The notes beneath the pieces were generated by a model. That model worked only from the letters and a program-made list of their open reading frames with translations, had not been told where the DNA came from and did not search any database. From Promethearchaeota archaeon (GTDB taxonomy: Archaea; Asgardarchaeota; Thorarchaeia; Thorarchaeales; Thorarchaeaceae), in the NCBI GenBank assembly GCA_048939765.1, contig JBHLPF010000061.1:1-13245 (forward strand): a DNA stretch of 13,245 bases, in the 5' to 3' direction. The first letter of the stretch is position 1; every line of letters starts with the position of its first letter. A program made the translations under genes and the position numbers. Positions 2,581-3,371 of this stretch are shown one piece after another.

Positions 2581-2684
2581 GGTTCTTTTTGTACAGACTG
2601 CTCACGAAACCGGACTCTATTAAGAGAAGGTCAAATGGCTGTCCGAGGCATGAGCGACCTACATGGTCATACGAGGTGAAAGAG

Positions 2685-2738
2685 ATGGCCAAAGACAAGA
2701 ACCAGAAACCAAAAGCAAAACCGAAGCCAAAGAAGTAG
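2685..2738 (+). CDS. Putative 17-aa Lys/Pro-rich micropeptide MAKDKNQKPKAKPKPKK
   Basis: Strong archaeal RBS GAGGTGA at 2673-2679, 5 nt before ATG; TATA-like TATTAA at 2618-2623; TAG at 2736-2738; downstream hairpin. It is below the ORF-track length cutoff. Confidence 0.55.
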   Translation: MAKDKNQKPKAKPKPKK

Positions 2739-2782
2739 CGGCCCGAGAACTGCTAATCCTCTTTGACCTAACAACGCACCCC

Positions 2783-2808
2783 CAGGAGGATTTGTTGAAA
2801 TCCTCCTG
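2783..2808. terminator. Perfect hairpin between convergent ORFs (candidate bidirectional terminator or 3' stabilising stem)
   Basis: CAGGAGGATTT-GTTG-AAATCCTCCTG, an 11-bp stem with a 4-nt loop, 2 nt after the stop codon of 2811..3371(-). There is no adjacent U-tract, so the function is inferred. Confidence 0.55.
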
Positions 2809-2810
2809 AA

Positions 2811-3371
2811 CTATTTCTCGTATTCGTCCTTCCTGAAGTTGTGCTGAGCAAATGCGCGAAAGTGAGATCCATCAACAACATAGTAGGTACGGCTCGCATA
2901 TCCGCCATAGCTTGTCAGACTGCGTTCGAATATGGTTCCATCCTCAAACCTGTGAGCATGGGCAGAGTCTCGAGTGAACTTTCGGTCAAGCCCCCATCGG
3001 TCATGGAATCCAACGACTCTGGCAATCCTGACATCCATAACATCATTGCTGTCACGTTTCTTTGACAGAGTATCGACAAGAGTTTCGTCAGTGACAAGGA
3101 AGCCACCTCTCTTCAGGAGATAGTTGGTCACCTCTTGCAATAGCTTGCTTTGCGAATCCGCACTGGCTATCTTTTCTTCATCTACATCTAGTAGGCGACT
3201 CCCTATTACTTTGACTCCAGGAGATAGTGAACTTTCCCCTCGCCGCCTTGCAATAATGCCACTCTCCCTTACTCTCTTTGCTCTTTGTCTGGCTTGTTCC
3301 TTCTTTCGCTCCAAGCCTTTCAGCCGCTCTTTCTTCTTTGTGTCTGGCAGTTCTTTGCTCCTCCGAGACAT
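2811..3371 (-). CDS. Hypothetical protein (186 aa) with a highly basic N-terminal helix and a beta-rich C-terminal domain
   Basis: Open frame 12 nt downstream of yjbQ on the same strand, ending at the hairpin; K/R-rich first ~45 aa. Confidence 0.8.
   Translation of the reverse strand: MSRRSKELPDTKKKERLKGLERKKEQARQRAKRVRESGIIARRRGESSLSPGVKVIGSRLLDVDEEKIASADSQSKLLQEVTNYLLKRGGFLVTDETLVDTLSKKRDSNDVMDVRIARVVGFHDRWGLDRKFTRDSAHAHRFEDGTIFERSLTSYGGYASRTYYVVDGSHFRAFAQHNFRKDEYEK

Follow-up and report, generated by a model that had tools for sequence, protein, structure and literature searches.

Between a 70-aa frame (2296-2508) and a 186-aa gene (2811-3371) of the window, a stretch of 13,245 nucleotides on contig JBHLPF010000061.1 of an archaeal MAG (completeness 88.5%, SSU rRNA archaeal), lies a gap of approximately 300 nt that is occupied by a micro-gene unit. 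Both bordering frames are on the minus strand; the 70-aa frame is questionable, and the 186-aa gene is convergent with the unit. On the plus strand of the gap, a BRE/TATA promoter element with the core TTTATATCC (2547-2558) stands 137 nt upstream of an ATG at 2685. It is followed by a 5' leader of approximately 105-110 nt (2576-2684), the start of which is placed by the distance from the TATA element. Toward its end the leader carries a Shine-Dalgarno (SD) sequence, GAGGTGA (2673-2679), separated by a 5-nt spacer from an open reading frame (ORF) of 17 codons and a stop (2685-2738; TAG 2736-2738). A scan for terminator-like structures finds a 6-bp hairpin over the stop codon on the plus strand (2736-2755) and, assigned to neither strand, a perfect 11-pair hairpin closed by a loop of 4 nt (2783-2808) and then a T-rich stretch; the stop codon of the 186-aa gene (2811-2813) lies 3 nt past this second hairpin. 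Each element named in the preliminary description of this DNA, namely a TATTAA (2618-2623, within the leader), GAGGTGA, ATG 2685, the 17-codon ORF and the downstream hairpin, was found where it had been placed. To judge from its sequence, the interval 2547-2808 is a self-contained monocistronic micro-gene with a putative promoter, leader, SD, ORF and hairpin terminator. As a complete and clean expression unit, it is open to direct testing.

The pairing of an SD sequence with a basic micro-ORF exceeds chance. GAGGTGA, which is complementary to the 3' end of the window genome's own 16S rRNA, occurs 481 times in that genome and is followed by a start codon 3-9 nt on in 195 cases. Fifty ORFs of 10-30 codons are led by the heptamer at this distance, and among them the 17-codon ORF ranks first in basic content, with a Lys plus Arg fraction of 0.47 compared with 0.35 for the next. 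Over the micro-gene region, a tRNA search found none and Rfam returned nothing at its gathering thresholds and noise only at E values up to 10.

A BLAST search with the whole unit was run against 86 genomes of the same Thorarchaeota family. The unit is 92% identical in two congeners (G005 and G015) and 68-86% identical in eight genomes of genus g5 and in genus g23. From 12 loci found by BLAST, a sequence-only model was built and used to search the family further, bringing in genera g25, g2, g7, g9 and g6. Collectively the searches place the micro-gene at 27 loci in 22 of the 86 genomes, or 26% of the family, and in 8 of its 16 genera. All loci share the same plan: GAGGTGA stands 4-9 nt ahead of an ATG (23 loci), GTG (three) or TTG (one), the ORF spans 17-26 codons, and a GC-rich hairpin follows 30-60 nt past the stop. 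Model matches in G076 and G089 lie within long ORFs and were discarded as false, and a BLAST match in G004 was judged by eye to be an apparent chance match of 24 nt in a different context.

An independent pattern was built from an SD, a start codon, 36-66 nt, codons for P-K-K and a stop. It picked up 22 true loci, spread over 19 of the 22 genomes, and a single false locus; the reversed pattern that served as control gave two matches. Outside the family, the model was run against 125 genomes of 26 other Asgard families and found no genuine member, its three weak matches being false on inspection. A second pattern, an SD followed by M-[A/G/S/T...]-K-[D/N]-K-K, was searched over 400 Asgard genomes, where its control gave no matches; all but two of its matches are confined to this family. 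Those two (G012 and G223), which are N-termini of longer proteins, and the three weak model matches lie inside or at the beginning of longer ORFs or have no SD-led micro-ORF. When a similar pattern was searched over 185,579 prokaryote species, one genome each, 59 matches were returned, of which 11 belong to the micro-gene family. These 11 are Lys-rich and 17-21 codons long, save one cut by a contig end, and all come from Thor-type MAGs labeled Thorarchaeota (five), 'uncultured archaeon' (four), Promethearchaeota (one) and Hermodarchaeota (one). The other matches are the starts of ordinary proteins, with the exception of one 18-codon oligolysine ORF from an actinobacterium. No member of the family was found in the viral contigs searched, nor in the JGI metagenome collection, where the sole match is unrelated. 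The ribosome-binding site, start codon and frame, the loss of which the preliminary description had named as a refutation, are kept in 27 of 27 loci. The unit as a whole is conserved in 21 other genomes. The earlier reading of an unannotated gene that stands by itself, has its own expression signals and encodes a small basic protein is borne out.

Within the family the distribution is patchy. The micro-gene is present in 3 of the 16 genomes of its own genus and in 8 of 28 in genus g5, and it is missing altogether from five genera that are represented by at least three genomes each. In genus g6 it occurs as two diverged tandem copies, separated by approximately 500 nt and both equipped with a leader, an SD and a hairpin (L055/L061 in G090, L056/L063 in G091 and L057/L062 in G021). 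One more copy in G090, near-identical, lies where a contig begins. The micro-gene is an accessory, lineage-restricted family, stable in subclades and missing from many close relatives.

Is the ORF translated? It has no T outside its start and stop codons, and since this leaves all three frames open, openness alone is no proof of coding. That circumstance, along with a length far under the thresholds of gene callers, would suit a chance ORF within a conserved intergenic or untranslated region. Genes so short escape standard annotation. The pattern of substitutions, counted within each genus as the fewest changes that each alignment column requires and compared by a binomial test, speaks against a chance ORF. 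Changes at codon positions 1, 2 and 3 number 12, 10 and 41 (p = 2.6e-7), a concentration at third positions that settles in favor of the gene the comparison of synonymous with non-synonymous change suggested earlier. In genera g1, g2 and g9, 8 of 8 differences are synonymous, third-position changes, and the coding signal recurs in six genera. Indels tell the same story. Length differences within the ORF are all multiples of three (3 nt in G080, G017 and G054; 3 or 6 nt between genera), and the sole 1-nt indel, a deletion in G086, falls between the SD and the ATG. The frameshifting indels that had been named as a possible refutation are absent from all 27 loci. Residues other than Lys are kept despite third-base variation, including a small residue at position 2, Asp or Asn at positions 4-5 and the Pro in the C-terminal K-P-K-K. 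Start, stop and SD are likewise kept in the 27 loci across eight genera. A chance ORF is therefore scarcely credible. From these substitution and indel patterns, drawn from related and thus non-independent genomes, the ORF is very probably protein-coding and its encoded peptide appears to be under purifying selection. The comparative evidence for the micro-gene is as strong as sequence alone can give, and its host group comprises the archaea closest to eukaryotes.

Two longer frames were considered and set aside. One is a 49-aa frame from a TTG at 2589 and the other a 48-aa overlapping frame from an ATG at 2663. For both, changes upstream of ATG 2685 are non-synonymous, and G086 has lost 1 nt from the spacer that separates the SD from this ATG. 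In the 48-aa frame the variable sites are first positions, which argues that this frame is not conserved.

Turning to the expression signals, the preliminary description took TATTAA at 2618 for the promoter. That assignment does not hold, since the hexamer sits inside the leader and is not conserved outside the genus, while a conserved TATA element lies 70 nt upstream. The BRE/TATA core TTTATATCC is found 124-137 nt ahead of the start codon in genera g1, g23 and g5 and in G017; it is invariant or nearly so in g1, g23 and g5, and variants are equally placed in other genera. The usual distance from TATA to start would put transcription initiation near 2577. The promoter 9-mer has eight sites in the genome, three of the others lying ahead of the genes for uS15, for a protein with a KH domain and for ATPase subunit AC39, which makes it look like a strong housekeeping promoter.

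The leader is itself conserved. It is more conserved than the flanks in every pair compared, and within the genus its identity reaches 92-94% compared with approximately 60% for the DNA just upstream. Two of its motifs are invariant, TGTACAGAC (2590-2598) and GTCCNAGGCA (2641-2650), and their combination occurs once in the genome. In a fold built by hand on 12 sequences, the 5' end of the leader is paired with a stretch immediately before the SD; 82.6% of cells pair, compared with 37-53% in slid controls, with covariation no higher than in those controls. RNAalifold over 20 leader sequences gave no consensus fold. A structured leader is plausible on this modeling. The SD sequence GAGGTGA is invariant in 20 of 20 aligned leaders and present in 27 of 27 loci. 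Its mean unpaired probability is 0.52 in native leaders and 0.39 in shuffled ones, and it is more open than its shuffled counterparts in 17 of 21 loci, which rules out SD sequestration or an RNA thermometer. On these values the ribosome-binding site is not hidden by the leader, which more probably stabilizes a very short mRNA or binds a regulator.

A leader with long invariant motifs, conserved well above its flanks, raises the alternative that the RNA is the functional product, as a regulatory or dual-function small RNA. Translation of the Lys-codon ORF would then sense, for example, the supply of lysyl-tRNA or the state of the ribosome, and the peptide would be inert. That the conserved codons are mostly Lys, in an ORF that is T-free and purine-rich, fits such a role. 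Against it, conservation of the ORF exceeds that of the leader in all pairs. The order of identity is ORF, then promoter plus leader, then 3' region and flanks in 11 of 11 pairs, as in G062a and G024 with 94% for the ORF, 73% for promoter plus leader, 59% for the 3' region and 45-57% for the flanks. Residues other than Lys are held while third bases vary, no co-directional downstream gene is conserved, covariation does not support the consensus fold, and the leader motif occurs only once in the genome. Since the ORF is the best conserved part and evolves codon by codon, a purely RNA-based function cannot explain the locus, and the RNA alternative as a whole is improbable.

The 3' end of the unit is marked by a hairpin with a GGAGG/CCTCC core, present after the ORF in 12 of 12 aligned loci. 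Two of its pairs change on both sides among these loci with pairing kept. The hairpin at 2783-2808 probably serves as terminator for both the micro-gene and the convergent 186-aa gene. The smaller hairpin at 2736-2755 is kept in G005 and G015 and absent from the other genera compared. As a side observation, the terminator hairpins (alignment columns 264-283) carry an SD-like GGAGG in the 5' arm and an anti-SD-like CCTCC in the 3' arm, and the rest of the stem varies.

Neighboring genes offer no constant companion. The downstream gene is convergent in most loci (G000, G020, G081, G062a/b, G091 and others), and neighbors differ between genera. In g5 a flavodoxin-like gene, of either orientation, adjoins every locus. 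Genera g6 and g9 share another arrangement, in which (L052 and L054 in g9; L056 and L062 in g6) a 4Fe-4S dicluster protein of approximately 175 aa and pI 4.6 is followed by the micro-gene or micro-genes and a convergent 475-aa MvhD/FlpD-ferredoxin protein. At other loci the neighbors are DUF362, HTH regulators, a solute-binding protein, CorA and a STAND NTPase. The micro-gene is without a fixed partner gene. An attenuation-type leader peptide was considered and excluded, since there is no conserved co-directional downstream gene; the downstream gene is convergent, the neighbors vary and no consensus alternative fold was found.

What may be a loose redox theme runs through the neighbors in g5, g6 and g9. 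The flavodoxin, Fe-S and MvhD neighbors in g5, g6, g9 and g2 prompted the idea of an electrostatic adaptor for acidic electron carriers, which is weakened because the flavodoxin-like neighbors in g5 are basic, with a pI of approximately 9. In the window's genus, four congeners retain the 186-aa neighbor gene without an adjoining micro-gene. Two of the four, G009 (L163:2031-2480, minus strand) and G014 (L164:1071-1520), have an unrelated ORF of approximately 66 codons, apparently for a membrane protein, in the slot that the micro-gene occupies in G000, G005 and G015. This resembles the exchange of one cassette for another with the flanking genes retained. The 186-aa protein itself (2811-3371, minus strand) has a strongly Lys/Arg-rich N-terminal third, a pI of 9.95 and no Pfam family, and it was found in 7 of 17 genomes searched of the genus, G000 included.

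Patchy occurrence in variable contexts, the tandem duplicates of g6 and a long leader are also what might be expected of a selfish or addiction gene resembling a type I toxin, in which a peptide gene with a long structured leader is held in check by an antisense RNA. Several features do not fit. The peptides have no hydrophobic residue or a single one, so none can be a membrane toxin, and on the opposite strand no conserved TATA-like element was found between -150 and +220. The SD is exposed (0.52 compared with 0.39 when shuffled), and no copy was found in viral contigs. The synteny shared by g6 and g9, together with the common synteny of all g5 loci, points to vertical descent. Low hydrophobicity, the missing antisense promoter and the open SD exclude a type I toxin role, and a selfish gene of this kind is very unlikely.

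The peptide encoded in the window has 17 residues, of which eight are Lys and three Pro, with no Arg and a pI of 10.5. Across the family the peptides are 17-26 aa long with 8-11 Lys regardless of length, 0-1 Arg, 0-1 hydrophobic residue and a pI of 10.2-10.8. The 20 aligned members start alike with M, a small residue, K, residues of the D/N type and K. A K-P-K-K C-terminus is found in 16 of the 20; the exceptions are one g9 paralogue and the peptides of g7 and g25. For annotators, this yields a family model of an SD, an M-A/G/S-K start, a K-P-K-K end and a hairpin. In total the family contains 174 Lys and 4 Arg in 399 residues. In the long ORFs of the window genome, Lys makes up 46% of Lys plus Arg, and by comparison the ratio of 174:4 suggests that Lys itself is required, beyond positive charge. 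Such strict use of Lys over Arg narrows the possible roles of the peptide, and the preference could in part reflect selection for A-rich, unstructured mRNA.

The preliminary description recognized no described family, and database searches agree. Pfam and NCBIfam scans, restricted to the nine members of at least 20 residues, gave no families at E values up to 10. The family profile found no matches in the PDB, which holds many ribosome structures, at the same limit, and full-text literature searches turned up no description of such a gene. The peptides form a new, undescribed family among the small basic proteins encoded by sORFs.

After probable removal of the Met, the product would be an intrinsically disordered polycation of 16 residues with a net charge of approximately +7, using Lys specifically and having no hydrophobic core. 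Such a free peptide would most likely bind a polyanion electrostatically. Tentatively, and with somewhat less than even confidence, the whole is best explained by a polycationic peptide that acts in free form and binds nucleic acid. Nucleic acid binding and ribosome pausing, both raised in the preliminary description, are putative roles. Neither a conserved partner gene nor homology to a DNA- or RNA-binding family singles out a ligand. DNA or chromatin, bound in the manner of a linker-histone tail, may be somewhat likelier as the target than ribosomal RNA; composition nearest to linker-histone tails and SPKK binders, combined with a non-universal distribution, would place it slightly ahead.

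The ribosome is a rival site. As a ribosome-associated micro-protein of the eL41, Thx or bS22 kind, the peptide would occupy a pocket in rRNA and be autoregulated through a leader that mimics this rRNA site. In size and charge it resembles such proteins, the promoter is strong and of the type that precedes uS15, the SD is perfect, and the leader is long and conserved, as is often the case on ribosomal-protein mRNAs. The likeness extends to eL41 (eS32), Thx, bS22 and bL37 as a group, which are free-standing genes for polycationic peptides of approximately 20-35 residues with no fold of their own, strongly expressed and often missed in annotation. Known ribosomal micro-proteins, however, are Arg-rich or mixed and occur throughout their lineages. 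The present peptide is Lys-only, at 174:4, and its gene is found in 22 of 86 family genomes and missing from the syntenic slot in four congeners. Profiles were no more encouraging. The 25-position Ribosomal_L41 profile (PF05162, eL41/eS32) run against a six-frame translation of the window's genome gave no match at E values up to 10, and Thx (PF17070) and TMA7 (PF09072) gave none; eL29 (PF01779) had no match at the locus and a sole match with E = 0.9 on another contig, inside a 398-aa frame. The PDB search, again at E values up to 10, was equally negative. With its patchy distribution and Lys-only composition, the peptide hardly fits a core ribosomal protein of the eL41 type, and the ribosomal alternative is unlikely. 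The comparison with eL41 drawn in the preliminary description is accordingly weak, given the missing profile match, the near absence of Arg and the presence in only 22 of 86 family genomes.

A nucleic acid-binding peptide remains the preferred reading, and for it the C-terminal tails of linker histone H1, the S/T-P-K-K minor-groove motifs and the tail-only H1 of kinetoplastids form the comparison set. The peptides share with them a composition of Lys with some Pro (and Ala in the window peptide), almost no Arg and no hydrophobic residues, and a presumably disordered chain that in most members ends in K-P-K-K. The likeness to histone H1 is the best-fitting part of the earlier reading, with respect to composition (Lys, some Pro, no Arg). 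Ser/Thr, the defining residue of the SPKK turn, is absent from most members. The peptides are also far shorter, at 16-25 residues, and to our knowledge shorter than any characterized linker-histone-like protein. Each peptide has only one or two such units, and homology by sequence is out of reach for peptides of such low complexity. On a more elaborate and rather doubtful version of this idea, the product would amount to a free-standing 'histone tail without a histone', a polylysine peptide of minimal size and linker-histone-like character with which some Thorarchaeota might neutralize and compact histone-bound DNA. Its lysines might be written and erased by Asgard lysine acetyl- and methyl-transferases, and if so it would belong to a wider and as yet undescribed class of oligolysine micro-genes with repeated origins in prokaryotes.

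Among characterized archaeal small proteins, a parallel by description rather than sequence is sP26 of Methanosarcina mazei. It is a 23-aa protein translated from its own small mRNA (spRNA26) that acts as a free peptide on GlnA1 (glutamine synthetase) and GlnK1 and is conserved at the nucleotide and amino-acid level in one lineage (bioRxiv 10.1101/2020.05.06.080432). Both are archaeal small proteins with a dedicated, lineage-conserved mRNA. The sP26 mRNA is leaderless (bioRxiv 10.1101/2020.05.06.080432), whereas the micro-gene has a leader of approximately 105 nt and a perfect SD.

Two further micro-ORFs came to light during the searches. The actinobacterial oligolysine ORF lies in the high-GC genome of Trujillonella endophytica (L083:2917-2973), where it forms a separate 18-codon ORF with 12 Lys behind GGAGGTGA. 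It is preceded by repeated TTGAC/GTCAAC inverted repeats and followed by a strong GC hairpin. Like the Thorarchaeota micro-gene it is a Lys-rich ORF unit, but it comes from an unrelated lineage with a different leader and tail, and it looks like a convergent analogue; no publication describing it came up in the literature searches. In IMG/VR contigs, an SD-led micro-ORF of 18 codons (23 in one) recurs at L195:242, L204, L217, L252, L279, L294 and L200:2162. It encodes a basic Gly/Lys peptide, identical in six contigs, that ends in P-K-K and is unrelated to the Thorarchaeota family; its G-T-Y-G core is presumably reminiscent of Thx.
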